Shown: one piece after another, positions 41,012-62,069 of the stretch
Layout: the number at the start of each line of letters is the position of its first letter
How positions within the stretch are numbered: position 1 is the stretch's first letter
Source of the DNA: Escherichia phage Ecwhy_1
Length of the DNA: 64,000 bases
Sequence record: MH791411.1
Strand: one strand, 5' to 3'
Notes under the pieces: model-generated
Database searches by the model: none
What the model saw: the letters and a program-made list of their open reading frames with translations, nothing else
Told to the model about the DNA's origin: nothing
Translations under genes and position numbers: made by a program

Positions 41012-42136
41012 ATGTTACCTTTCGTATTGTTATTTGATTATGGGAACGAAAAACAAGAAAGTTCTTATGATGTTAGTGTATATGGAAACAATAACTACAT
41101 TTTAAATAAACAAACTGGAAACCTTTTTGCATCCGGTGCTGCGGCATTCATGGGTGATAACACAGTTAAGTATTATATTACCCAAATAGAATCAAATGTT
41201 CATAGCTGTGAGATAGGTTTCCTATCATCATGGATAATTAAGAAGGACAAAACTGTTTTCATTTTAGGAAACAAAAGCAGTATAGGATTAACTGGTTCGA
41301 CAACATCATGGTTCGAAATTACAAATTTATTTTCTGCTGTTCCTGAAATATGGGACAACCTATTTGAATGTAAAGTTCAATTGGGATATAACTGTATACG
41401 TGTTATGACACCACTAGGATCAATCTATGCGATTGGTACAAACACTTATGGTGCATTGGGTACTGGTACTACATCCTCATCAACTTCGTTCGTTAAAAGT
41501 GGTGCTGTGGATGCTGTACGCATGGAATCAACAGAACGTTCAGTGTTCTATCAAAACAGTTCTGGACAATGGTTTGGATGTGGTGATAACACATATGGTA
41601 TACTAGGTCTAGGAACTACCGCGAGTCGTGTAAACTCATACACCGCACCAGTATGGACTAATGCAGAAGCTGTTAGCTTCTCTAACCGTGGGATCATATA
41701 CAGCCTCAATGGTACTCTATACTCATGTGGTGACAAAGTTAATGGTCAGCTAGGGGATGGATATACACAAAGCATAGACGCTGCCAGGAGCACACCATAC
41801 ACCATAGGAACCGCATTCCAAATTGGTAAGGCAATAACATCAGCTACACAAGCATCAGCCAACGTATTCATTGGTAAAGATAATAAGTTCTATGGTACTG
41901 GTAGTATTGCTGCTGGTATAAATGGTAGTGCTAGTGCTGCATTAAGTAAAGTTACTGCGTTATCAGCATCACTACCACCTGACATTACATACAATGATAT
42001 TATAACATTTAATACAGGGACCGTAACTTTTATTCAAGCAAAAGGACAACTATATTATGTTGGTAGAAGAACTTACATAGATAATAGTTCAGACGTTACC
42101 ACACAGTTCAGTGTAATTGGTGGCTTAGATAATTAA
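41012..42136 (+). CDS. RCC1-like repeat protein, divergent paralog 12 (374 aa)
   Basis: MLPFVLLFDYGN; blocks GTNTYGALGTG, GDNTYGILGLG, VNGQLGDGY; SD AAGGAG. Confidence 0.7.
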   Translation: MLPFVLLFDYGNEKQESSYDVSVYGNNNYILNKQTGNLFASGAAAFMGDNTVKYYITQIESNVHSCEIGFLSSWIIKKDKTVFILGNKSSIGLTGSTTSWFEITNLFSAVPEIWDNLFECKVQLGYNCIRVMTPLGSIYAIGTNTYGALGTGTTSSSTSFVKSGAVDAVRMESTERSVFYQNSSGQWFGCGDNTYGILGLGTTASRVNSYTAPVWTNAEAVSFSNRGIIYSLNGTLYSCGDKVNGQLGDGYTQSIDAARSTPYTIGTAFQIGKAITSATQASANVFIGKDNKFYGTGSIAAGINGSASAALSKVTALSASLPPDITYNDIITFNTGTVTFIQAKGQLYYVGRRTYIDNSSDVTTQFSVIGGLDN

Positions 42137-42139
42137 AAT

Positions 42140-42172
42140 TAATCCAGTACTATTATAGTACTGGATTTTTTA
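42140..42172. terminator. bidirectional terminator between the RCC1-like array and the membrane-protein operon
   Basis: Palindrome TCCAGTACTATTATAGTACTGGA + TTTTTT. Confidence 0.6.
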
Positions 42173-42544
42173 TTATAACATACGTTTTTTACGAATAGTA
42201 TTGTGGATATTTTTTAAGTAGTTCACACCTTTACACAACCCATAAAATACACCAGCACATACACCAAATGCAGGTATCATACATGCAAACATCGTTATCA
42301 ATTCCCACATCTCCATGCCATCTTGATTCGGTCCAAGGTCAAAGATAACAACCGAAACCAAACCTGTGATACTTAGCATATAATATGCCATGAAGATAAT
42401 AAAAGAAACAATACCAACGTCAGATTTTACTGAATTTAGCATATTATATACTGGGGTTACACAGAAGTAATACAATAACCAAATCAAAGAACCTAAACTA
42501 AACACAATAATAGTAATGATTGAAAATATTTCACGATAACTCAT
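42173..42544 (-). CDS. small polytopic membrane protein, tandem family (123 aa)
   Basis: Hydrophobic helices; basic C-terminus NTIRKKRML; SD GAGGG. Confidence 0.6.
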   Translation of the reverse strand: MSYREIFSIITIIVFSLGSLIWLLYYFCVTPVYNMLNSVKSDVGIVSFIIFMAYYMLSITGLVSVVIFDLGPNQDGMEMWELITMFACMIPAFGVCAGVFYGLCKGVNYLKNIHNTIRKKRML

Positions 42545-42545
42545 T

Positions 42546-42908
42546 TTAGTCCCTCGTGCCTAAACGCTCATGGATTTCGGAAATCTTATGATACATCCAC
42601 GCCAGCAACTCAACGGATGCACAGAGAATAACCACACACAGTGTTAGTGAACATACCATAATACCAAATGTTATAAAATTCGAACTCGATGTTAATAATG
42701 CAACCAGCATTAGAATAAAACCAAAATTGAATGCTGTACTCAACACAGTATATGCTGGACTATATCTCCTTTGTATTACATCATATATATTTGATAATGG
42801 TCGCTTATGGAAGTACTTCCCAATGCACACGAATGCATTCAGTGAGAAGATAAATGTATACGCCATTACCATTAATTGACCAATAAAAGATAATTCAATA
42901 TTATTCAT
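42546..42908 (-). CDS. small polytopic membrane protein, tandem family (120 aa)
   Basis: Hydrophobic helices; basic C-terminus; SD GAGGATAAC. Confidence 0.6.
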   Translation of the reverse strand: MNNIELSFIGQLMVMAYTFIFSLNAFVCIGKYFHKRPLSNIYDVIQRRYSPAYTVLSTAFNFGFILMLVALLTSSSNFITFGIMVCSLTLCVVILCASVELLAWMYHKISEIHERLGTRD

Positions 42909-42909
42909 G

Positions 42910-43281
42910 TTATCCTCGTTTGCGGTATTTGATGCTTTGGTGCATTCTCTGAAAATGTGGAACTAATACATATTGTACGGTTTGCCAAATTACCATCAGA
43001 TTATGGACAGCACCACCGAGTAGACCAAACACTACACAGATAATTGCCAGTACTGGATCACCATCTACCATACCCCATTTGAATATATGTAAAATCCATA
43101 CAGTGATAAGTAGTAATAAACTAATCCAATACGTAGTAAAAAATCCTGCATGTAATTCATAGTCATCAGCAATTTCATCGTATACGGTTTCCAAGAAGGA
43201 TACACAGAAGAACTTGCCAATAATAACAATTGTACTAATAAACAACATAGCAGTTAATATAATAAGTGCAATTTCCATCAC
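42910..43281 (-). CDS. small polytopic membrane protein, tandem family (123 aa)
   Basis: Hydrophobic helices; C-terminus KYRKRG; SD GAGGGATG. Confidence 0.6.
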   Translation of the reverse strand: MMEIALIILTAMLFISTIVIIGKFFCVSFLETVYDEIADDYELHAGFFTTYWISLLLLITVWILHIFKWGMVDGDPVLAIICVVFGLLGGAVHNLMVIWQTVQYVLVPHFQRMHQSIKYRKRG

Positions 43282-43592
43282 ATCCCTCGTTTACGCTTTT
43301 GATTGCGTCTAAATTCGGTTAGCCCACGAGTAATCGGTGGCATCAGACTACATAAAAAAATAACAGTTGTTGGTAATAACATGAAGTCAATCATTGCTGT
43401 ATTAACAGGTGGTTCACATATCAAATAATACAAGCAAGTAATACTAATTATGGTTGACCCAATAAAAGGAATACAAAATTCTTTTATCTGTTTTTCAACA
43501 TAATCAAACATCTTCAGTACAAATAAAAATCCAACCCAACACATAATAAAATAGAATGAATAAAGCGTGTAAATCAATGTTACGATATCCAT
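43278..43592 (-). CDS. small polytopic membrane protein, tandem family (104 aa)
   Basis: Hydrophobic helices; C-terminus RRNQKRKRGM; SD GAGG. Confidence 0.6.
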   Translation of the reverse strand: MDIVTLIYTLYSFYFIMCWVGFLFVLKMFDYVEKQIKEFCIPFIGSTIISITCLYYLICEPPVNTAMIDFMLLPTTVIFLCSLMPPITRGLTEFRRNQKRKRGM

Positions 43593-43930
43593 TAGTACCT
43601 CGCATCAGGAACTTTAGCACGTAATTTATGAACGACTGGGAACAACAACAAACTTACATATGCAATAGTTGAACCCCAATAGAATACTAATATAATTGGT
43701 TCACCATTGGAACGGAACCCTCTACTAATCATTGAGTAGTGAATAATTGGCATAATCATCGCCATACCAAACCATGCGTGTAATTTTAATTGCAACAGGT
43801 GTTCAGAGATGAATACTGAAATTGGTCGTTTGAAGAACCACATAAGAAAGTAGAATCCAGCACTAAGAATATAGTACATAATACTAACTTTCATATACCA
43901 CGGCAGTAAGTGTAAAAAATATTCCATCAT
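43592..43930 (-). CDS. small polytopic membrane protein, tandem family (112 aa)
   Basis: Hydrophobic helices; SD GGAGGAATG. Confidence 0.6.
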   Translation of the reverse strand: MMEYFLHLLPWYMKVSIMYYILSAGFYFLMWFFKRPISVFISEHLLQLKLHAWFGMAMIMPIIHYSMISRGFRSNGEPIILVFYWGSTIAYVSLLLFPVVHKLRAKVPDARY

Positions 43931-44274
43931 TCCTCCGGTATCTTGTTTCGAAGTTCAATCATAACACAACAAATTTTAATGGTCAAGTAAAAAACTACAC
44001 ATATCATACCCAATGTACCGTAAACTGCGGAGAATGCTGGCAGTACCTTTCCTGTGAGTGTTGCTACAATACATGCTATCAATGTTGATGCAAACAACGA
44101 TTGATTAATGAAAGAATTCATAAAATCTTCACCATTACGCTTATAGAATTGTCGTTTAAAATACCATCCTAGAAACATAACTACCCAAAATGTTACATAA
44201 CCTGTTAGAATAATCCCTGCAATTGAATGTGCAACAGAACTACTCTTTAAAAACTCAAGATAAGATTCAAACAT
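43927..44274 (-). CDS. small polytopic membrane protein, tandem family (115 aa)
   Basis: Hydrophobic helices; C-terminus ELRNKIPEE. Confidence 0.6.
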   Translation of the reverse strand: MFESYLEFLKSSSVAHSIAGIILTGYVTFWVVMFLGWYFKRQFYKRNGEDFMNSFINQSLFASTLIACIVATLTGKVLPAFSAVYGTLGMICVVFYLTIKICCVMIELRNKIPEE

Positions 44275-44612
44275 TAGAAGTCCCCACGAATTTTTGCTCT
44301 ACCATTAATGATGAGATTAAACAAGTATATCAGCACCCAAATTAGTAATCCAAGGAATACAATATATTGTGATATTGAGTTCAACTGTGGATTAGCACAA
44401 TAAATTAAGTGTGCGATAAGACCAACAATTGCAAACATACCTTGGATAATAGTGAAAAGAAGTAGTGAAATGTTTCCATCAGGATACAGTTTGAAAACGA
44501 TTTTCTTTTTAAAATACCATAGTACTACAACTAGTGCATGATAAAAGAAAAAACCAAACAGATAAATCAAAGTAATACTAAGCATTGTATCTGAATTAAA
44601 AAACTCAAGCAT
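44274..44612 (-). CDS. small polytopic membrane protein, tandem family (112 aa), first gene of operon
   Basis: SD CAGGAG; TTGACA promoter upstream. Confidence 0.6.
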   Translation of the reverse strand: MLEFFNSDTMLSITLIYLFGFFFYHALVVVLWYFKKKIVFKLYPDGNISLLLFTIIQGMFAIVGLIAHLIYCANPQLNSISQYIVFLGLLIWVLIYLFNLIINGRAKIRGDF

Positions 44613-44679
44613 ATCGTATCTCCTGTGGTGAATATTAAGTTATAGTACTACACTATGGTAGTACTGTCAATACATGTAA

Positions 44680-45450
44680 TTAAATTTTCTCAAGGAACAA
44701 GTTTTCGCACTGCTCTTCCCAATCATACGGATTGTTGTTGTATACTGCTGAAATCAACAGAGGCATACGCAGTGAAGGAGCACGAAGTGCATCTTCATGT
44801 TTCAGCATCCAATTCAGGATTGCTTTGCTACCATTACTATTAACACCTTTAGTTGACAGGATGTTGGTCTTGTTCATTACGTTTTCAATGTGAATCATGA
44901 TATCGCTTTTAGTCTGGATCTGTAAGTCAACATACACAGAGCGAGACATAAGAGCAGCATAGTGAGCAGACATTTTGGTTTTAGCTTTAGCATTCAGTGC
45001 TAAATCTTTGTTAGTAATGAATACGATACGACCGTTAAAATCAAAGCTGTTAGGGATACCGTTGGTAGTTAAGTACTTAGAGCTAGTCATGTAAGACACA
45101 GTACGTTTACCGCTGTCCAGTACAGCTTTGAGCAGGTTCATACCGTCTTCTGAATCAAAGATGCTGTCCATATCATCCAGTACTAATACGTTGGTGCTGT
45201 GACGATTCTTGTACAGAACTTCATACAGAGCAAGAGTAGTCATCTTACCACTGATAGTAGCTACGTTCCATTCTGCTGCGTCATGAGCTTTCTGGAGGCG
45301 TTGTGACAGGGTGTAAGTCTTACCAACACCAGGTGCACCGCTGACAACCATACTTTTTACAGTACTGTTATCGTCGAGCAAACACTCAAGAGCAACCATC
45401 ATGGAGTTGAAGTTTTTCTGAATTTGAATGCTACGTGCTTCTCTGGTCAT
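44680..45450 (-). CDS. P-loop NTPase (AAA+/DnaC-IstB-like ATPase), 256 aa
   Basis: Walker A GAPGVGKT, Walker B-like VLVLDDMD; SD GAGGATAAC. Confidence 0.6.
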   Translation of the reverse strand: MTREARSIQIQKNFNSMMVALECLLDDNSTVKSMVVSGAPGVGKTYTLSQRLQKAHDAAEWNVATISGKMTTLALYEVLYKNRHSTNVLVLDDMDSIFDSEDGMNLLKAVLDSGKRTVSYMTSSKYLTTNGIPNSFDFNGRIVFITNKDLALNAKAKTKMSAHYAALMSRSVYVDLQIQTKSDIMIHIENVMNKTNILSTKGVNSNGSKAILNWMLKHEDALRAPSLRMPLLISAVYNNNPYDWEEQCENLFLEKI

Positions 45451-45517
45451 TTCGTTATCCTCATCAATTGATGAAATAATTATAGCAAAAAGGGCTGACC
45501 TAAGTCAACCCTTTTGT

Positions 45518-46861
45518 TTAGTTTTGTTTCACCCCACCCCATTTTTCATAGATGGCAATAATTTTATCTATGTTGTTTGGTGTAGTTGTTTCTGTATACC
45601 CATCCCCCACCTCTCTTTTAGTGAAGATTGGACAAAACTGCCTTTTACATTCATTTTCTGCGTTAGTACAATTTCCAACACTTGGAAAGCGATACGAATA
45701 CATTGGTTTTATATCAAAAATACTATTCAAATTTTGTTTTGAAACTCGATTGCCCTTTACTGTTTCTTTTCCATATTTCACACCAACACATACCCCGCTG
45801 TCCATTATTACATGAATATATGTATATGTTGCACACTTTCCGGCATCATATGGGTTACCTTGATGTTTATCTAAAAAGTTCGTTATAGATGTTTTATATG
45901 GTAAATTATTACTACTCCCCATCAACATTATGTTAGTTTTCTGATTTGGTTTTTCTGGATTGTGTTCAAACCCTATAAATTTATCATTTGAATTACGAAA
46001 TTCTAATTCCTTTTTTATACGATATACATACTGTGATTTAGTCCAGTGGAAATTAGTTGAACACCTACACGGTATAATATGTGCAGATGATAAATCATTT
46101 AGTGTTGCGTAGAATACACCATCACATACACCAGCTTGTACATATTCATCATAACTACACTTCGCACACACAAATTTGTATAAACGATAATTTCCCCTCA
46201 TCTTTTCTGATGGTTGAATTGTAAATTCATTAGTTAAATGACCATTATTATTAATTTTATCTATATGATATTGTAGTGGTTTAGAGTTAGTTTTAGTTAT
46301 TGACTCTTTTTTACATTTCATACAACCAAATGTTTTATTTTTTGATGTTAACGTATTAATATTAGAAATCGAACAAAACACATTATGTTTGTTACAATAA
46401 ATTAGTATCTCAGTGTTGGTAGCATTAATTTTATCATAAGAACCAAGACCCAATAATGTATATATCCCACCACTGAATTTTTTGAATTGTTCAATAATAG
46501 TCATAATATGTTGTGTATTTGTTTTCTTTGTCCACTTTGTTGCAGATTTCTTTTTAGTAATATGTATGGAGTTTATTCCCAATCCATATATTAAACCATT
46601 CGGGACATCATATTTTTTAAGATAGTGTTTACTATTATTGTAAATGAAATATCCCAAAATCGAGTTATCATTATTGGAAAAATCATCTTGGGGTAATTTA
46701 TTAAAATCCATATGGTTGAAATCTTTTGTTGGATGGCGTTCTGATAAAATAATACGAGTTATTTTATCAGAATCGACCATTTTTGAACAAATTGTAATTC
46801 TAACATCTTGTATGAAATTCAATTTGGTACATTTAAAAGGTACTTTAATATCAACACGCAT
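45518..46861 (-). CDS. hypothetical Cys-rich protein (447 aa)
   Basis: ORF; SD AAGGAG; several C-x2-C pairs (CMKCKK, CAKCS). Confidence 0.6.
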   Translation of the reverse strand: MRVDIKVPFKCTKLNFIQDVRITICSKMVDSDKITRIILSERHPTKDFNHMDFNKLPQDDFSNNDNSILGYFIYNNSKHYLKKYDVPNGLIYGLGINSIHITKKKSATKWTKKTNTQHIMTIIEQFKKFSGGIYTLLGLGSYDKINATNTEILIYCNKHNVFCSISNINTLTSKNKTFGCMKCKKESITKTNSKPLQYHIDKINNNGHLTNEFTIQPSEKMRGNYRLYKFVCAKCSYDEYVQAGVCDGVFYATLNDLSSAHIIPCRCSTNFHWTKSQYVYRIKKELEFRNSNDKFIGFEHNPEKPNQKTNIMLMGSSNNLPYKTSITNFLDKHQGNPYDAGKCATYTYIHVIMDSGVCVGVKYGKETVKGNRVSKQNLNSIFDIKPMYSYRFPSVGNCTNAENECKRQFCPIFTKREVGDGYTETTTPNNIDKIIAIYEKWGGVKQN

Positions 46862-48146: not shown

Positions 48147-48341
48147 CTAATCCTCACTGAAAACAACAATAAGGAATGACACGAACAATGCCGCATAACA
48201 AGGAGCTATCTTCATGTACCACGGGACTTCATAATACCATGTACCCAATTCATCCCACGAAAAGAGTATACTCACACCGAAGCCGATTAGCGATAGTACA
48301 ATAAAAGAAATCCAGAAACGCTTTGAATATACTAATAACAT
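48147..48341 (-). CDS. small membrane protein (64 aa)
   Basis: Two hydrophobic segments; SD AAAGGAAC. Confidence 0.5.
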   Translation of the reverse strand: MLLVYSKRFWISFIVLSLIGFGVSILFSWDELGTWYYEVPWYMKIAPCYAALFVSFLIVVFSED

Positions 48342-49497: not shown

Positions 49498-49869
49498 TTA
49501 ATCTCCATAATCAAGTTTAACTAACTTACCACCCAGATACCCAAAGTTTTCTGGCTTCGCATCTGAATAGAAGAAGTCAGTACTCAACTCTGAATCCAAT
49601 GCTAAAGCACACAACTCCACCCAAAATAAACCCCTATGTTGTACTGGCTTACAACGTTTCTGTACAGTTACTAGTCCAGTACATGATGACCACAACGTAG
49701 GGCAGATACCACTATCACTACGCTTGGAGTACTGCATCCAAGAACGTTCATTGAGGTTAGCTATCATCCCTGTTAAGAATAGCTTCCAACTTTTAAAGGT
49801 TGGAATCTTGATAGCATATTCCCCAATGAGTATGACAGTTCGTGTTGCACCTTTCAAATCTATATTCAT
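49498..49869 (-). CDS. short kinase-like protein (123 aa)
   Basis: Motifs EYAIKIP (Lys), DAKPENFG (catalytic-loop-like), KLDYGD (DFG-like), ending right after DYG; no clear SD. Confidence 0.45.
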   Translation of the reverse strand: MNIDLKGATRTVILIGEYAIKIPTFKSWKLFLTGMIANLNERSWMQYSKRSDSGICPTLWSSCTGLVTVQKRCKPVQHRGLFWVELCALALDSELSTDFFYSDAKPENFGYLGGKLVKLDYGD

Positions 49870-49878
49870 ATTTTTTAA

Positions 49879-50130
49879 TTAGAAGAACACAAACCAAGTC
49901 CAGAATAAATTCCACACTACAAATAAAGACATAGTGGTTTTATGTACAATATCAGCAGTACTGGTCCATCCTCCACCGTGTCCTATTCCATTTATGAATA
50001 GAACTAAGAACAAGATACCATTTACTACAATAGTACATAGTAAGTACACAAACACATTCCATGCAAGTTCAGGGGATACTAACGTAAATGGTAAAACAAT
50101 TAGTAGTATTAGAACTAATAAAATTTTCAT
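49879..50130 (-). CDS. small membrane protein (83 aa)
   Basis: Hydrophobic N-terminus; SD GTGAGG. Confidence 0.55.
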   Translation of the reverse strand: MKILLVLILLIVLPFTLVSPELAWNVFVYLLCTIVVNGILFLVLFINGIGHGGGWTSTADIVHKTTMSLFVVWNLFWTWFVFF

Positions 50131-51624: not shown

Positions 51625-51993
51625 CTATCGATTTGGCATTTTATCTCGTAATTTCACAAGATAATCAATCACGGTACATCCTGAAATAAAGGTAATATAA
51701 GTACTGAAAAATCCTACCAGAATAAAGGCAACAAGCGTACTCCCATTTGGTTCTTCAGCTTTAATACCAATGATACCATCAGATGCAGTGAAAAATGTAG
51801 ACATAAACGTTAGACAGATGTACATCACTAATAAGAATTCATGTTCTAATGACGGATAAAAACGGTCAAAGAGTTTATAAAATTTAAAGTACAGTAGGAG
51901 TATACCAACAAAGGCATAGAAAGTAAACAGTGTTGTTATGATATATGATATTAAATTTAAATTATACATCTCAACGCTCCGGTAGATTATCAC
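51625..51993 (-). CDS. small polytopic membrane protein, second tandem cluster (122 aa)
   Basis: Hydrophobic helices; C-terminus KLRDKMPNR. Confidence 0.6.
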   Translation of the reverse strand: MIIYRSVEMYNLNLISYIITTLFTFYAFVGILLLYFKFYKLFDRFYPSLEHEFLLVMYICLTFMSTFFTASDGIIGIKAEEPNGSTLVAFILVGFFSTYITFISGCTVIDYLVKLRDKMPNR

Positions 51994-52318
51994 GTAATGT
52001 TTTGATTCGATTATACAATTTCATTGCTACATTTCCAAATAAACCAAAACCCATTACTAAAATGTATGCGATGAACATAGTAATAATCACAATAGTACCT
52101 AGACTGTAATGTACTGCACTAATACCCATTATTGTTTCTACAATGATGTGAGCAACAGAAATAATCAAAAGTACTACTACAATTGGATGATTTGGATACA
52201 TTCGGTTAAACAATGTTTTGTACTTAAAGAAGTACAGTACTCCACCAAATAAGAAGTACACAATGTAGATTGATGCAATAGCATAAGCAAAAGCATTAGT
52301 GTAGAAAATCATTATCAA
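51971..52318 (-). CDS. small polytopic membrane protein, second tandem cluster (115 aa)
   Basis: Hydrophobic helices; C-terminus TLRDNLPER. Confidence 0.6.
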   Translation of the reverse strand: MIMIFYTNAFAYAIASIYIVYFLFGGVLYFFKYKTLFNRMYPNHPIVVVLLIISVAHIIVETIMGISAVHYSLGTIVIITMFIAYILVMGFGLFGNVAMKLYNRIKTLRDNLPER

Positions 52319-52321
52319 TCC

Positions 52322-52660
52322 TTACTTTTCAGGGATTTTATCACGCCACTCATCAATACGATGAAGCAGTTTAAAGAGCAAAAATATCGGAACAGTAGCT
52401 ATCATAATGGCAATTGTTAGTAATGTCAACCCCGATACGAGATTTAATTCGTCAGTACTATATCCACATACCAGTGCTTCAATTATCCCCCACGTACATG
52501 CACAGAACATCATAAATGAAATGGGTGCATCGTAGTATATGCGTTGATACAAGGTTGTGTATCGGAAGAATGCAATAATGTAACAAAACATGTAATACAC
52601 CCAAATTAACGATACTACATAAAATGATACCTTATTAATTAATTCAAAATGTTGTTCCAT
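52322..52660 (-). CDS. small polytopic membrane protein, second tandem cluster (112 aa)
   Basis: Hydrophobic helices; C-terminus EWRDKIPEK. Confidence 0.6.
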   Translation of the reverse strand: MEQHFELINKVSFYVVSLIWVYYMFCYIIAFFRYTTLYQRIYYDAPISFMMFCACTWGIIEALVCGYSTDELNLVSGLTLLTIAIMIATVPIFLLFKLLHRIDEWRDKIPEK

Positions 52661-52670
52661 TTTTTTACCC

Positions 52671-52973
52671 CTACATATATTCTAAGAATAATGTATTAGC
52701 TTCGTCTATGTTCTTAAGATAATACATGTAATACAGATTTGGTTGTCCGTCTTTTGAACTCAAATCAAAGTACTTTAAACTATGCACCTTCATGACAAAA
52801 ACAAATAATGACTTAAAACCAATCTCACCGTACTTAATAAACAGTTCATCTAAATGAATGTAACTCTTAGTTTCAGATAATTCCTTCACATCAGCTTCAA
52901 TTTCTTGTAAGCGAAGTTTACCGATTAAGTTTTCAAATGAACGCATGATGTTGTTCCTTATGCTGGTACACAA
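52671..52973 (-). CDS. hypothetical protein (100 aa)
   Basis: ORF. Confidence 0.5.
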   Translation of the reverse strand: MCTSIRNNIMRSFENLIGKLRLQEIEADVKELSETKSYIHLDELFIKYGEIGFKSLFVFVMKVHSLKYFDLSSKDGQPNLYYMYYLKNIDEANTLFLEYM

Positions 52974-53371
52974 TTTTTTATAATGAATACACGTTTCATG
53001 AATGAACTTTCATATACGTACTTCAGTTTACCATTTTCACGCATACGATGAAACACATCTTTACCACTAGTACTCCATGTTGAACCAGTCTCTGCATCAA
53101 CATTGTTCATTACACCAGATGTTACGTTCACCCCGTACTTGAAGCTAAAGGTACTGCCTTCTTCTACTAGAGGGATTGGTGTACTACGTTCATGTTCCAG
53201 TACAAGTTTACTGCCGATGATGTTGTACGAAGTTAGCTTGCATTTTAAAACACCCATCTCTTGTGCAGTTGGGTAATTCTTCTCAAATAAATCAGATACT
53301 TCATTTGCATAACAAACTGAACTAATCATAAGAAGTAATGAACTGATAGAACGGAAAATAACTTTTAACAT
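52958..53371 (-). CDS. secreted protein (137 aa), predicted signal peptide
   Basis: N-terminus MLKVIFRSISSLLLMISSVCYA; SD GGAGGCAAAC. Confidence 0.6.
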   Translation of the reverse strand: MLKVIFRSISSLLLMISSVCYANEVSDLFEKNYPTAQEMGVLKCKLTSYNIIGSKLVLEHERSTPIPLVEEGSTFSFKYGVNVTSGVMNNVDAETGSTWSTSGKDVFHRMRENGKLKYVYESSFMKRVFIIKNCVPA

Positions 53372-53437
53372 GTTTGCCTCCAGTAGTTGATGAAATGATT
53401 ATAGCAAAAAGGGCCGACCGAAGTCAACCCTTTTCTT

Positions 53438-53798: not shown

Positions 53799-54050
53799 TC
53801 ACCGGAATTCACGCTCGATACCTAGTATATCCGACTTACGTTCAGATAGTATTCCAGACGTATATCGATCTTTGTTATCAAATGCATTGAACCCTATAGT
53901 TTTATAATTGTCATGTACCAATCCTCTAGTGTAAGACTTGGTATAGAACTCACCGTTTCTAAACTCCTGTCTAGCAATGGAGCACTGGTATTCAGTACTA
54001 TAAACTATATCAGTAAACAATACAAGTGAAAATAAAACATATTTAAACAT
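53799..54050 (-). CDS. secreted protein (83 aa), predicted signal peptide
   Basis: N-terminus MFKYVLFSLVLFTDIVYS; SD AGAGGTAATG. Confidence 0.55.
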   Translation of the reverse strand: MFKYVLFSLVLFTDIVYSTEYQCSIARQEFRNGEFYTKSYTRGLVHDNYKTIGFNAFDNKDRYTSGILSERKSDILGIEREFR

Positions 54051-55714: not shown

Positions 55715-56011
55715 TTAGTAGTTACAGTCAGCTTTCGCTGTGAATGTTTTACTTTCACCTCGTTGTGTGGTGATTCGTCCGAGTAAAGTAGTTTTGTCAA
55801 TAGTCATTGTAGTTAGTACTGGAACATTACCTTCAAAGTCAATAGCTTTGAAATTGTAGGTGGTTTCATTCTCCACTACACTTGGACCAAAGAGTTCATA
55901 TGTGTTGATTTCAAGTGTGTCACCATCTGAACGCAACAGTGTGCAGTCCAGATTAGGAGTAGCCAGTACTGGGAAAGCCAAAAACATCATCATTACAATA
56001 ATTAATTTCAT
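55715..56011 (-). CDS. secreted protein (98 aa), predicted signal peptide
   Basis: N-terminus MKLIIVMMMFLAFPVLA; SD CAGGAG. Confidence 0.6.
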   Translation of the reverse strand: MKLIIVMMMFLAFPVLATPNLDCTLLRSDGDTLEINTYELFGPSVVENETTYNFKAIDFEGNVPVLTTMTIDKTTLLGRITTQRGESKTFTAKADCNY

Positions 56012-56271
56012 TTCACTTCTCCTGTTTTTTTCTTAGGATCAACCAATGACCAAATGAAGAATCCGAGAATTACAAGTACCCACAGAATCATGATAAAGAA
56101 AGCGAACAGTACAATAGTGTTTGTCAAAAAGAAATACAATAGAATGTTCGACCCAATACTACATACAATCAATGCAGCTTCATGTTTAACAACACGAATG
56201 GCTGTAATGAGTGCAGGAAGAAATCCGACAAATAACAGTACTAACGCATATAGTGATAATGTTTCAGCCAT
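56008..56271 (-). CDS. small membrane protein (87 aa)
   Basis: Hydrophobic helices; SD AAGGGATATC. Confidence 0.55.
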   Translation of the reverse strand: MAETLSLYALVLLFVGFLPALITAIRVVKHEAALIVCSIGSNILLYFFLTNTIVLFAFFIMILWVLVILGFFIWSLVDPKKKTGEVK

Positions 56272-58059: not shown

Positions 58060-58296
58060 TTATTTTTTAATAGATTCATAAAGCAGAAACAACCAAATAA
58101 ACATTGATGAACAAACTACTACTGGGATTAATGTAAATTCAGTAAAGAATAAAAGTATTCCATAAGTTAGTATGCAACATAAGTTTACGTACATAATTGC
58201 TTCTGCATTTTTATTTTTCATTTTATATGCAATGAATGTTGGTGACCACATTACCAAAAATGCAAACAACGCACATATGATGATTATAGTTTCCAT
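58060..58296 (-). CDS. small membrane protein (78 aa)
   Basis: Hydrophobic helices; SD GGAGGTG. Confidence 0.55.
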   Translation of the reverse strand: METIIIICALFAFLVMWSPTFIAYKMKNKNAEAIMYVNLCCILTYGILLFFTEFTLIPVVVCSSMFIWLFLLYESIKK

Positions 58297-60256: not shown

Positions 60257-60607
60257 TTAGTCCTCATATTTACACAAGCCACCGAATGTTGCCTGTTTTG
60301 CTGCCTTACGCATCATCACAAGTTTAACATACTGTTCGCCATTACTTTCTTCATATACATCAACTTGAAGAAATGCAAGCATATTGGGATCAGTATCGTT
60401 CGAGTACTGCGTAAAACTAATGTCACCTACAGTATGTTCTTTAACAAAATTATACACTTCACCATCGATATAAACGATAGTATGGTCATCGCTATCACCT
60501 TGGTAAATGTGTTTAATATCACCTTCAGTACAGACTAGTCCAGGTAATGGTTCTGCATAAGACATACCACATATAATCATACAAACAAAAAACAAAATTA
60601 CTTTCAT
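60257..60607 (-). CDS. secreted protein (116 aa), predicted signal peptide
   Basis: N-terminus MKVILFFVCMIICGMSYA; SD AAAGGAAAC. Confidence 0.6.
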   Translation of the reverse strand: MKVILFFVCMIICGMSYAEPLPGLVCTEGDIKHIYQGDSDDHTIVYIDGEVYNFVKEHTVGDISFTQYSNDTDPNMLAFLQVDVYEESNGEQYVKLVMMRKAAKQATFGGLCKYED

Positions 60608-60987
60608 GATTTGTTTCCTTTGGATAAAATGGATTTCTTCACTTTGTACTGCTTGTAGTTATTATACCAAACATCGATTACATAAATCAAGTACCAAAGT
60701 GATGGATATAATGATAGACCAATAAAAACTGAAAAAATACTTGTATTAATAAAACCAATACAGTGCAGTGTAAATGCAACGATTAGAATACCAATCGTAA
60801 TCATACTAGCTGAATATGGTACGCTATCAGATGCGAACCATGAATCAACCTTACTAATTAAAGTATACTTCCCAGTACTAACAGCATAAACAATTGCTAC
60901 TATACCAAATAATGCCATTGAAATAGTTATTACTGAGTTAATAAGAATCGGAGTAATTAATACATAAAGCATTACATCGTTTATCAT
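60604..60987 (-). CDS. small polytopic membrane protein (127 aa)
   Basis: Hydrophobic helices; SD AAGGTATAAC. Confidence 0.6.
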   Translation of the reverse strand: MINDVMLYVLITPILINSVITISMALFGIVAIVYAVSTGKYTLISKVDSWFASDSVPYSASMITIGILIVAFTLHCIGFINTSIFSVFIGLSLYPSLWYLIYVIDVWYNNYKQYKVKKSILSKGNKS

Positions 60988-60997
60988 TTGTTATACC

Positions 60998-61363
60998 TTA
61001 AAGTTCACAATGAATATTCAATTTATCAATATCCTGATCGCGTTTGTTCGACGAATCTTGATAAATGACTATGTAAATATCCCCATCCTTTGTCTTGGGG
61101 TCCACTATCAATATTACATTTGCTATTATACCAGCATCTGATTTATATGTCGATACCTTTTTATTCCCAATCAAACTCTCGGCCCTGAAACGGTAAACCT
61201 CATTATCTACGACAATATTGTTTCCATTTTGTGGGTCATTAGAAAGTACATGCCATGTTCCATCGTTTCCCATACAATCAAGGTAAGCAGGTACGGCTGT
61301 ACTGAACCTTGAATAAAGCATGAATACTACAAACACCATTATCATTCTTATATATTTTTTCAT
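60998..61363 (-). CDS. secreted protein (about 121 aa), predicted signal peptide
   Basis: Trimmed to MKKYIRMIMVFVVF start with SD AGAGG. Confidence 0.55.
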   Translation of the reverse strand: MKKYIRMIMVFVVFMLYSRFSTAVPAYLDCMGNDGTWHVLSNDPQNGNNIVVDNEVYRFRAESLIGNKKVSTYKSDAGIIANVILIVDPKTKDGDIYIVIYQDSSNKRDQDIDKLNIHCEL

Positions 61364-61441
61364 TATAACCTCTAACGAGCAATACTTCTGCACATATTAT
61401 TTGTACAGAAGTATTTAATACTATTAGAGACTTTTTGAACG

Positions 61442-61768
61442 TTACTTCTTACTAGTTAGTTTATCTTTCAAGATATCAAACCAAATGGAAACTTTACCAG
61501 CAAACAATGCATTAGTAAACCACACAATACCAACAATGTTCTCAACTAAATTCATAATTGAAACAAATGGTCCAATTGGTAATACAAAACTTACTAACCA
61601 TGACAGTACTGAAATAAGTACTACAACGAAGAAGATTCGTACAATGGGTGAGTCTAACATAAACAACTCACGAAACTCATCACGCTCGGTTTCGTCTTTA
61701 ATGAAGAATTCGAAAACCATAACCCATAACAGAATTAGAGCAGGAATTGAAATTAGAACTGATAACAT
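61442..61768 (-). CDS. small polytopic membrane protein (108 aa)
   Basis: Hydrophobic helices; SD GAGGATATAA. Confidence 0.6.
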   Translation of the reverse strand: MLSVLISIPALILLWVMVFEFFIKDETERDEFRELFMLDSPIVRIFFVVVLISVLSWLVSFVLPIGPFVSIMNLVENIVGIVWFTNALFAGKVSIWFDILKDKLTSKK

Positions 61769-61826: not shown

Positions 61827-62069
61827 CTACAAACGTTTGTCAACAGGTTTTTCTTCAATAAGCATAAGATAACTGAAGACGAATAGTAATACAGATGCCA
61901 TATCAATAACCGTAAAGCTCACGGGAATGATAATAGACACTAGAATGAGTGCCACGTTTAGCAAGAATACAGTAGTGATATCCACCAGCTTTCGTTTAGT
62001 GGCTACTGCTACTAGTGTAGGGTAGAACATAAACAATAATGCAACTACAAAACTCAATACTAGATACAT
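61827..62069 (-). CDS. small membrane protein (80 aa)
   Basis: Hydrophobic helices; SD AAGGTGAAAA. Confidence 0.55.
   Translation of the reverse strand: MYLVLSFVVALLFMFYPTLVAVATKRKLVDITTVFLLNVALILVSIIIPVSFTVIDMASVLLFVFSYLMLIEEKPVDKRL

Follow-up and report, generated by a model that had tools for sequence, protein, structure and literature searches.

Class I holins, such as S105 of phage lambda, are proteins of about 100-120 amino acids (aa) with three transmembrane (TM) helices, an N-out/C-in topology and a short, highly basic cytoplasmic C-terminus. Small phage membrane proteins encoded in tandem arrays are, as a kind, not unprecedented. A tandem array of RCC1-like paralogs has been described in phAPEC6/121Q (PMC7247149), and the endolysin of RaK2-like phages, gp532 of 121Q, is of the signal-anchor-release (SAR) type, with an N-terminal, SAR-like TM domain (PMC5259590). 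In T4, nrdC.10 is a conserved open reading frame (ORF) with an AAA-like product (PMC1524935). Here we describe a locus of Escherichia phage Ecwhy_1 (record MH791411.1), in which a gene for a NrdC.10-like ATPase is followed by a main array of seven genes for small membrane proteins, A1 to A7, and in which a second cluster, B1 to B3, holds three more. By the window we mean the whole stretch of 64,000 nucleotides (nt) that was analysed. The superfamily formed by these ten proteins and the gene module to which the main array belongs are real, non-trivial and so far undescribed, and there is very little doubt that the superfamily, new as it is, consists of three-helix proteins of about 105-125 aa with the architecture set out below.

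The window is Asteriusvirus jumbo coliphage DNA: over positions 42000-45500, phages EC.P1, BF17 and fEgEco12 match it at 98.5% identity and the 121Q/PBECO4/G17 group at about 86%. An initial annotation of this DNA had proposed ten ORFs of 104-123 aa, all of which are present on the minus strand where it placed them. The size range holds with the start codons used in the annotation of relatives, which for four genes (A3, A5, B1 and B2) are the next downstream ATG. With these starts, and with the two subfamilies (H type and RKIP type) that are defined below, the genes are:

A1, 42173..42544, minus strand: 123 aa, three TM helices, H-type; YYFC after TM1; tail NIHNTIRKKRML; orthologs G17_00083, A4_234 (phage A4), XMR02060 (Turkey5) and RaK2_315
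A2, 42546..42908, minus strand: 120 aa, three TM helices, H-type; IGKYFH; tail EIHERLGTRD
A3, 42910..43278, minus strand: 122 aa from ATG 43278 (alternative GTG 43281), three TM helices, H-type; IGKFFCV; tail RMHQSIKYRKRG
Gene A4, 43278..43592, minus strand: 104 aa, three TM helices, the most divergent H-type member; tail EFRRNQKRKRGM, with FHxKQK in orthologs
A5, 43592..43927, minus strand: 111 aa from ATG 43927 (alternative ATG 43930), RKIP-type; WFFKRP; tail KLRAKVPDARY
A6, 43927..44274, minus strand: 115 aa, RKIP-type, the hub of the family; WYFKR; tail ELRNKIPEE
A7, 44274..44612, minus strand: 112 aa, RKIP-type; WYFKKK; tail NGRAKIRGDF; duplicated in 121Q/G17-type phages
ATPase gene, 44680..45450, minus strand: 256-aa P-loop/AAA-like nucleoside triphosphatase, T4 NrdC.10 homolog, directly upstream of the array
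B1, 51625..51969, minus strand: 114 aa from ATG 51969 (alternative GTG 51993), RKIP-type; LYFKF; tail KLRDKMPNR
B2, 51971..52312, minus strand: 113 aa from ATG 52312 (alternative TTG 52318), RKIP-type; YFFKYK; tail TLRDNLPER
B3, 52322..52660, minus strand: 112 aa, RKIP-type; AFFRY; tail EWRDKIPEK; internal promoter-like site at 52429-52401

In 121Q, the corresponding genes are 224-232 and 207-209; in the annotation of phAPEC6 the array is gp012c-017c, with A2 uncalled, and B1 and B2 are gp028c-029c, with B3 uncalled. By BLAST against 50,697 phage records, array genes are annotated in 33-35, all of them Asteriusvirus-like. The ratio of nonsynonymous to synonymous substitution rates (dN/dS) against the G17 orthologs is 0.09-0.37 for the ten genes, compared with 0.02 for the adjacent ATPase and 0.16 for DenV; the array ORFs are therefore real genes under purifying selection, which evolve comparatively fast. 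Junctions within the main array range from -4 to +1 nt. With the starts of the relatives, B1 and B2 lie 1 nt apart and do not overlap.

The relationship among the ten proteins is invisible in pairwise comparison. Their pairwise identity is 15-30%, and phmmer links only B1, B2 and B3 (E 1e-10 to 6e-5) and, weakly, A6 and A7 (E 0.0015). In PHROGs they fall into at least eight families (27618, 26405, 33258, 27396, 19046, 19454, 19285 and 16874), whose functions are unknown and between which there are weak cross-hits; A6 matches phrog_16874, 'membrane protein', at E 3.3e-6. Low identity, so few phmmer links and separation into that many families would all suit the view that the ten are unrelated and that their likeness reflects the shared composition of short hydrophobic proteins. 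As a test of paralogy, pairwise comparison by BLASTP or phmmer gave too weak a signal and was replaced by profile-profile comparison with controls, built on orthologs from G17, phage A4, Turkey5, RaK2 and a metagenomic contig (L008). The ortholog-group profiles form a connected network. When each group is compared with all others, the match has a probability of 96-98% (E 1e-9 to 1e-14), with reversed controls at no more than 5%; even the group of gene A4 matches the rest of the family at 96.3% (E 1.8e-9). The RKIP-type profile matches the H-type profile at 95.3% probability (E 2.3e-8) over 107 columns, end to end and with the motifs in register, and scores 48.7 against at most 15 for reversed and column-shuffled controls. 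Furthermore, a hidden Markov model (HMM) of the H type ranks nearly all RKIP-type members above every unrelated ORF among about 590, other small membrane ORFs included. End-to-end matches at 95-98% with motifs in register, set against reversed or shuffled controls at 5% or less, contradict a likeness of composition only, as does the conservation of size, topology, gene order and synteny. That explanation was rejected on the profile-profile controls and is extremely improbable.

The single family of small membrane proteins claimed in the initial annotation is thereby established. The ten are paralogous, and their number represents an expansion that is indeed unusual in a phage; they are not ten recent copies, however, but members of two ancient subfamilies. 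The RKIP type comprises A5, A6, A7 and B1 to B3. Here TM1 ends in W-[YF]-F-K-[RK], followed by [FY]-Y-P, and the tail reads L-R-x-K-[IVM]-P-[ED]; the alignment has two invariant residues, an F and an R. The H type, A1 to A4, has I-G-K-F-F-C or Y-F-F-C followed by Y-D, and a tail of the form phi-H-x-x-I-[KR]-x-[KR]-[KR]. The superfamily as a whole can be defined by a length of about 100-135 aa, three TM helices, a motif after TM1 (W-[YF]-F-K or G-K-F-F-C) and a C-tail motif, either [LF]-R-x-K-[IVM]-P or phi-H-x-x-I-[KR]-x-[KR]-[KR], and all ten proteins of the window fit this definition. As to location, A1 to A7 stand in tandem downstream of the NrdC.10-like ATPase gene, and B1 to B3 are a detached second cluster.

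That these are small polytopic membrane proteins, as first proposed, is supported by TM helices in all ten. Three hydrophobic helices are present in 92 of 96 family sequences by Kyte-Doolittle hydropathy. Of the three or four helices originally suggested, three per protein is the number found by hydropathy and AlphaFold2, and a fourth is not. The basic C-terminal tails had been quoted correctly. In 92 sequences, the mean number of Lys plus Arg residues is 0.5 in the N-terminus, 3.0 in loop 1, 0.4 in loop 2 and 4.4 in the C-tail, and the net charge of loop 2 is acidic. From this distribution and the positive-inside rule an N-out/C-in topology is predicted, and insertion into the host inner membrane would be expected. 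The AlphaFold2 model of A3, made from the H-type alignment, is a three-helix bundle with a predicted local distance difference test score (pLDDT) of 91.1 and a predicted template modelling score of 0.75. It consists of TM1 (2-23), a short helix (27-38), TM2 (40-66), a tight loop and a single long helix (76-121), which is TM3 running on into the basic tail. The model of B3 is similar (pLDDT 70.8). In common, the proteins thus have an aromatic-basic motif just behind TM1, a short helix within loop 1 on the cytoplasmic side, a periplasmic loop 2 of acidic character and a long TM3 that extends as a basic cytoplasmic helix.

The link between array and ATPase gene extends well beyond the window. The ATPase has Pfam AAA/STAND matches and matches phrog_1250 at E 7e-103. 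In tblastn it is about 38% identical to its T-even homologs over 94-98% of the protein, and it is 70% identical to RaK2_00307, which is annotated as nrdC.10. Counting as array members the three-helix paralogs of about 100-135 aa that lie downstream of the ATPase gene, the following numbers were found:

Window (Ecwhy_1): 7 copies in the main array, 3 in the second cluster
G17: 8 copies after the ATPase gene (A7 duplicated), 3 in the second cluster
Phage A4: 7 copies after the ATPase gene, 1 in the second cluster
Turkey5: 8 copies after the ATPase gene (gene A4 duplicated), 3 in the second cluster
Metagenomic contig L008: 8 copies after the ATPase gene
Klebsiella phage RaK2: 8 copies after the ATPase gene (ORF309-316, all matched by the family HMMs)
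Pectobacterium phage CBB: about 5 copies after the ATPase gene
Xanthomonas phage XbC2: 7 copies after the ATPase gene

Array and ATPase gene form a module in every RaK2-like jumbo-phage lineage examined, and in some (the metagenomic contig and RaK2) the gap between them is zero. Against the superfamily profile, the group of CBB and XbC2 has a match probability of 91% (E 9e-7). Gene order is kept in the Asteriusvirus-like phages, the metagenomic contig and RaK2, with RKIP-type genes next to the ATPase gene and H-type genes distal. Orthologs correspond largely 1:1 between lineages, in the same order. It follows from this constancy across genera that most duplications are ancient and that the copies are not redundant. 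In T2/T4 and in the PA5oct-like phage Deifobo the ATPase homolog is present with no array beside it. An exhaustive profile search of 1.84 billion representatives gave 23 significant hits, and word-indexed searches of 5.8 billion clusters gave 31 and 23. All database hits are proteins of about 100-140 aa, and contigs or source names, where given, indicate jumbo phages; none of the hits of the exhaustive or word-indexed profile searches bears an informative name. Since the superfamily profile is too diffuse for databases of that size, the breadth of the family is shown by synteny.

In three relatives, the array is closed by a gene for a DUF1190 (YgiB-like) lipoprotein, which is missing at the array end in the window and in G17:

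Phage A4, locus L003, 20086-20637: DUF1190 gene (Pfam E 4e-32)
RaK2, locus L010, 10054-10650: DUF1190 gene (Pfam E 8e-26), with a ClpP-like peptidase gene next to it
CBB, locus L011, 8732-9370: DUF1190 gene CBB_547, with PF06693 in its record

Divergence is far faster in the array than in its flanks, and the array is exchanged between phages as a module. In phage A4 the ATPase is 96% identical to that of the window, whereas the array proteins are 31-63% identical, as distant as those of Turkey5 or RaK2. The reverse is seen in WPEC3 (PV611058), where A6 is 100% identical and the ATPase 59%. A6 is also 99% identical in slurp01 and phAPEC6, despite a DNA identity of about 87% elsewhere. Recombination mosaicism is visible at the boundary between ATPase gene and array (window 44612-44680), in records that include ON568341 (UE-S1). 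There are, moreover, lineage-specific duplications: A7 in G17, gene A4 in Turkey5 and 309/310 in RaK2. Within ortholog groups the best-conserved parts, by mean identity, are the N-terminus (0.53), loop 1 (0.50), TM1 (0.46) and the C-tail (0.45), and the most variable are TM2 (0.34), loop 2 (0.33) and TM3 (0.27).

Several signals in the DNA bear on the expression of the array:

Array promoter, 44642..44670, minus strand: TTGACAGTACTA-N-TACTAT, within the 67 nt that separate the ATPase gene from A7; the spacer contains an 8-bp palindrome
Hairpin-promoter, 45479..45511, minus strand: GGGTTGACTTAGGTCAGCCC-TTTTTGCTATAAT, with the -35 hexamer inside a GC-rich hairpin and an extended -10 after it; heads the ATPase gene
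Hairpin-promoter, 53398..53430, minus strand: heads the transcription unit with B3-B2-B1
Hairpin, 42141..42167, no strand assigned: 12-bp stem, within the 36 nt that separate A1 (minus strand) from the convergent RCC1-like gene (plus strand)

The TTGACA promoter reported upstream of the array in the initial annotation is confirmed as a sequence motif, TTGACA-17-TACTAT, at 44670-44642; it is conserved in G17, vB_Ec-M-J and Turkey5, and the tight packing of the genes behind it is supported as well. The site is one of a recurrent class, TTGACAGTACT-N-(AG)TACTAT/GTATAAT, which has eight minus-strand sites in the window (1693, 1753, 5080, 5356, 9167, 44670, 52429 and 53775), compared with 0.67 expected by chance. 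Generic sigma-70-like matches are not enriched in the window, with 50 found and 61 expected from shuffled sequence. The hairpin-promoters, with a TTGACT -35 in the 5' arm of the hairpin, a T-run and TGCTATAAT, likewise recur eight times on the minus strand (45511-45479, 47149, 48956, 53430, 54112, 55693, 56473 and 60067), with none expected. Their consensus of about 35 nt, AAAGGGTTGACTT(A/C)GGTCAGCCCTTTTTGCTATAAT, is followed by a conserved ATTTCATCA leader. In the G17 record the hairpins at corresponding positions are annotated as terminators, and the element seems to combine a terminator with an early promoter and to punctuate the early region; the copy at 45479-45511 would end the upstream unit and start the unit of ATPase gene plus array. 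No terminator is present between the ATPase gene and A7. The array is therefore readable from two host-type promoters, its own and the stronger hairpin-promoter at 45511-45479. At the other end, the hairpin at 42141-42167 is likely to be a bidirectional terminator that closes the transcription unit. Its core has an AGTACTA..TAGTACT palindrome in common with the array promoter, which may be a shared operator or processing signal. Early expression is suggested by the promoter type and by neighbours such as denV and, in relatives, a T7 gp0.7-like kinase, which lies near the B cluster.

The Shine-Dalgarno sequence of each downstream gene of the main array (junctions 42544-44274) lies within the last two to four codons of the preceding gene. 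For example, GGAGGA encodes P-E-E, CGAGGG encodes K-R-G, CCGGAGGAATG encodes P-E-E-stop/Met and CGAGGGATGTGATG encodes K-R-G-M. Initiation signals and C-terminal residues consequently constrain each other. The conservation of the C-tail as a mere by-product of this arrangement was considered and dismissed: the overlap covers the last two to three codons only and not the R/H-x-K-I-P core, and that core is also present where no gene follows closely.

Comparison with known families yielded little, and NCBI-style naming of the proteins nothing. In Pfam, no family reaches threshold for 39 members of the superfamily, and holin and Imm families are missing from the hits even when E values up to 1 are admitted. 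PF14373 (Imm_superinfect) is hit neither by the ten proteins of the window nor by the 39 members. Homology to known holins or spanins, which according to the initial annotation could have explained the function, was sought and not found. PADLOC, a library of defence and not of anti-defence proteins, gave no match, apart from A2 against a generic 2TM effector at 0.068. A sequence search of the PDB with the array proteins returned nothing, and fold searches returned generic helical bundles only, nothing informative. The array genes are not mentioned in the papers examined on fEgEco12, Sharanji, JP4, UE-S1, CBB, phAPEC6 or ph0011, nor in those on 'nrdC.10'. None of their products is found in the phAPEC6 virion proteome of 62 proteins, although small hydrophobic proteins are easily missed by mass spectrometry.

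On the basis of this information, it is possible to speculate about function. Host RNA polymerase would transcribe the array early from the sigma-70-type promoters, and the mRNA would be translated as a coupled set, whose products would insert in the host inner membrane and act as envelope-takeover factors. Each paralog may engage a different membrane target via its fast-evolving TM2-loop2-TM3 hairpin, with the conserved cytoplasmic face supplying a common function. The likeliest outcome would be immunity or superinfection exclusion; alternatively, the proteins would in a related way condition the inner membrane protectively over the long infection cycle of a jumbo phage. Exclusion, immunity and membrane remodelling, which had been put forward at the outset, are plausible roles, and we tentatively favour early takeover factors at the host inner membrane, with exclusion/immunity or envelope conditioning as the likeliest functions. 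This takeover reading is fitted by the envelope-rich neighbourhood (the DUF1190 lipoprotein and, at 52.9-62 kb, at least five more small membrane proteins and five with signal peptides), and the early host-type promoters, the absence from the virion and the fast, modular evolution were counted in its favour. Several points weigh against it. No experimental or homology link to any exclusion protein exists, the Imm family being unmatched, and the putatively early timing of expression is read from promoter sequence only. The best-conserved surfaces are cytoplasmic, while a block of entry would be expected at the periplasmic face. The exclusion genes known so far mostly occur singly and show poor conservation, whereas here the 1:1 orthology and the order of seven to nine paralogs are maintained among phages that infect E. 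coli, Klebsiella, Pectobacterium and Xanthomonas. Such strict conservation looks more like a core function, and it makes the chief rival a hetero-oligomeric inner-membrane complex with the NrdC.10-like ATPase, for transport, anchoring or remodelling, in which the cytoplasmic motifs would dock the ATPase or other subunits. The succession of ATPase gene and array in every RaK2-like lineage examined, sometimes gapless, speaks for such a complex, as do junctions with a geometry of translational coupling, the retention of both subfamilies in constant order, the conservation of loop 1 and C-tail, and the persistence of the array across very different hosts. Nevertheless, T-even and PA5oct-like phages carry the ATPase without the array, alleles of the two assort independently (as in phage A4 and WPEC3), the array owns a conserved promoter, the B cluster lies 7 kb from the ATPase gene, and copy number varies between seven and nine in the main array and between one and three in the second cluster, so that we regard the complex as doubtful. 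Rather unlikely is a related proposal, in which seven to nine three-helix subunits from the two subfamilies would build a phage-made membrane assembly specific to RaK2-like phages, possibly powered or organised by the ATPase.

Lineage-specific duplications in an already expanded family (G17, Turkey5 and RaK2), the fast-evolving membrane-embedded hairpin, the swapping of whole arrays between phages and the position within the early region would also be expected of anti-defence proteins, directed against membrane-embedded abortive-infection effectors or sensors, with different paralogs covering different systems. Host defence repertoires vary between strains and genera, yet the same ortholog set and order recur from E. 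coli to Xanthomonas phages; dN/dS stays below 0.4, and PADLOC, within the scope of its library, gave no match. An anti-defence role is thus rather unlikely. Finally, the proteins could be holin- or antiholin-like and time lysis by controlling the release or activation of the SAR endolysin. Their architecture is that of class I holins (about 105-120 aa, three TM helices, N-out/C-in, basic C-tail), and a SAR-like endolysin needs a membrane-depolarising partner (PMC5259590). On the other hand, none of 39 members matches a Pfam holin family, fold searches were uninformative, the promoters are of early (sigma-70) and not of late type, and there is no Met-Lys-Met dual-start motif. The endolysin is gp532 in 121Q, remote in numbering from the array (genes 224-232 and 207-209), and lysis genes lie at other loci in relatives. 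For fEgEco12 and ph0011 an annotated holin has been reported, yet the array genes are labelled 'hypothetical' in both records. To our knowledge, ten copies would also be unprecedented for holins. The idea of lysis timing in the initial annotation is thus weakened, and we consider a holin-like function quite improbable.

The surroundings of the array show further peculiarities:

About 22000-42136, plus strand: tandem array of RCC1-repeat (WD40_RLD) genes of about 375 aa each (last copy 41012-42136), convergent with the membrane-protein array
45518-46861, minus strand: 447-aa ORF with a CapR homology domain, which matches the endonuclease PHROG phrog_681
49498-49869, minus strand: 123-aa ORF that matches positions 40-167 of the 225-position phrog_4301 and has a D-A-K-P-E-N motif
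52958-53371, 53799-54050, 55715-56011, 60257-60607 and 60998-61393, minus strand: five signal-peptide proteins of 83-137 aa with an early conserved Cys
56008-56271, 58060-58296, 61827-62069, 60604-60987, 61442-61768, 48147-48341 and 49879-50130, minus strand: seven small predicted membrane proteins outside the superfamily

The RCC1-like array has about 15 copies in vB_Ec-M-J, and the same juxtaposition is found in the metagenomic contig; several of these paralogs are virion proteins of phAPEC6 ('DNA condensation proteins'). The slot at 45518-46861 is variable, being occupied by a 1.1-kb HNH endonuclease-type gene in vB_Ec-M-J and G17, by larger genes in phage A4 and Turkey5, and by a 1.9-kb gene annotated 'exonuclease ABC C subunit' in phAPEC6; it is probably a homing-endonuclease hotspot. 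The ORF at 49498-49869 may be a truncated or atypical kinase; D-A-K-P-E-N recalls the catalytic loop of protein kinases. The five signal-peptide proteins may be a further paralog family, as indicated by a cross-hit of phrog_27330/phrog_25709, and several of their genes directly adjoin genes for small membrane proteins. Among the seven other membrane proteins, that at 56008-56271 appears to have as its vB_Ec-M-J ortholog a gene annotated 'immunity to superinfection', and that at 58060-58296 is the sole one to match Pfam Imm_superinfect, at a sub-threshold E of 0.014. Between 42 and 64 kb, about 40% of the genes seem to encode envelope-targeted products.

RaK2-like jumbo phages (Asteriusvirus, Alcyoneusvirus and Mimasvirus) are under development for therapy, and more than 80% of their genes are without known function. 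At least eight 'unknown' protein clusters now merge into a single superfamily, whose architecture is clear, which has two subfamilies and whose genomic module is conserved. The result is a defined and cheap experimental target of ten genes of about 340 nt each. A role in exclusion or immunity, if true, would have a bearing on the design of phage cocktails. A complex with the ATPase would offer a first functional handle on a conserved ORF of the T4 family, and a multi-paralog assembly would be a new viral membrane machine, that is, a conduit, a platform anchoring replication or assembly, or a remodelling scaffold. A holin-like function would mean an unusual expansion of lysis control.

The 'putative membrane proteins' of GAP32/CBB and the eight PHROG families are the same genes, orthologs or distant homologs, with no function recorded; databases list them as at least eight unrelated families, and their unity, subfamilies, fixed order and link with the NrdC.10-like ATPase are unrecorded in the annotations and papers examined. 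With class I holins the array proteins share size, three helices, a basic C-tail and a predicted location in the inner membrane, and hydropathy, Lys/Arg distribution and AlphaFold2 models predict the same N-out/C-in topology. They differ from these holins in that there is no sequence or profile match and no dual-start motif, and in that their genes, ten copies in two conserved subfamilies, occupy a region of early-type promoters, well away from the endolysin. Late expression from a lysis cassette, as in holins, is not indicated, since the promoters are of sigma-70 type and no lysis genes lie in the flanks. T4 Imm and Sp are likewise small early inner-membrane phage proteins, the early timing being putative for the array, and the context is T4-related and rich in envelope proteins. 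Imm, however, has 83 aa and two TM helices and is encoded by a single gene, in contrast to seven to nine conserved paralogs with conserved cytoplasmic faces. The RCC1-like array of phAPEC6/121Q represents the same kind of tandem expansion, in the same genomes and directly adjacent. Its products are soluble virion proteins of about 380 aa, whereas those of the membrane-protein array are small, lie in the membrane, are missing from the virion and have diverged much further. AcrZ, MgrB and KdpF are host-encoded, have one helix and show no homology to the array proteins, but as short membrane proteins that bind larger ones they illustrate, by analogy, a possible mode of action for the array proteins.

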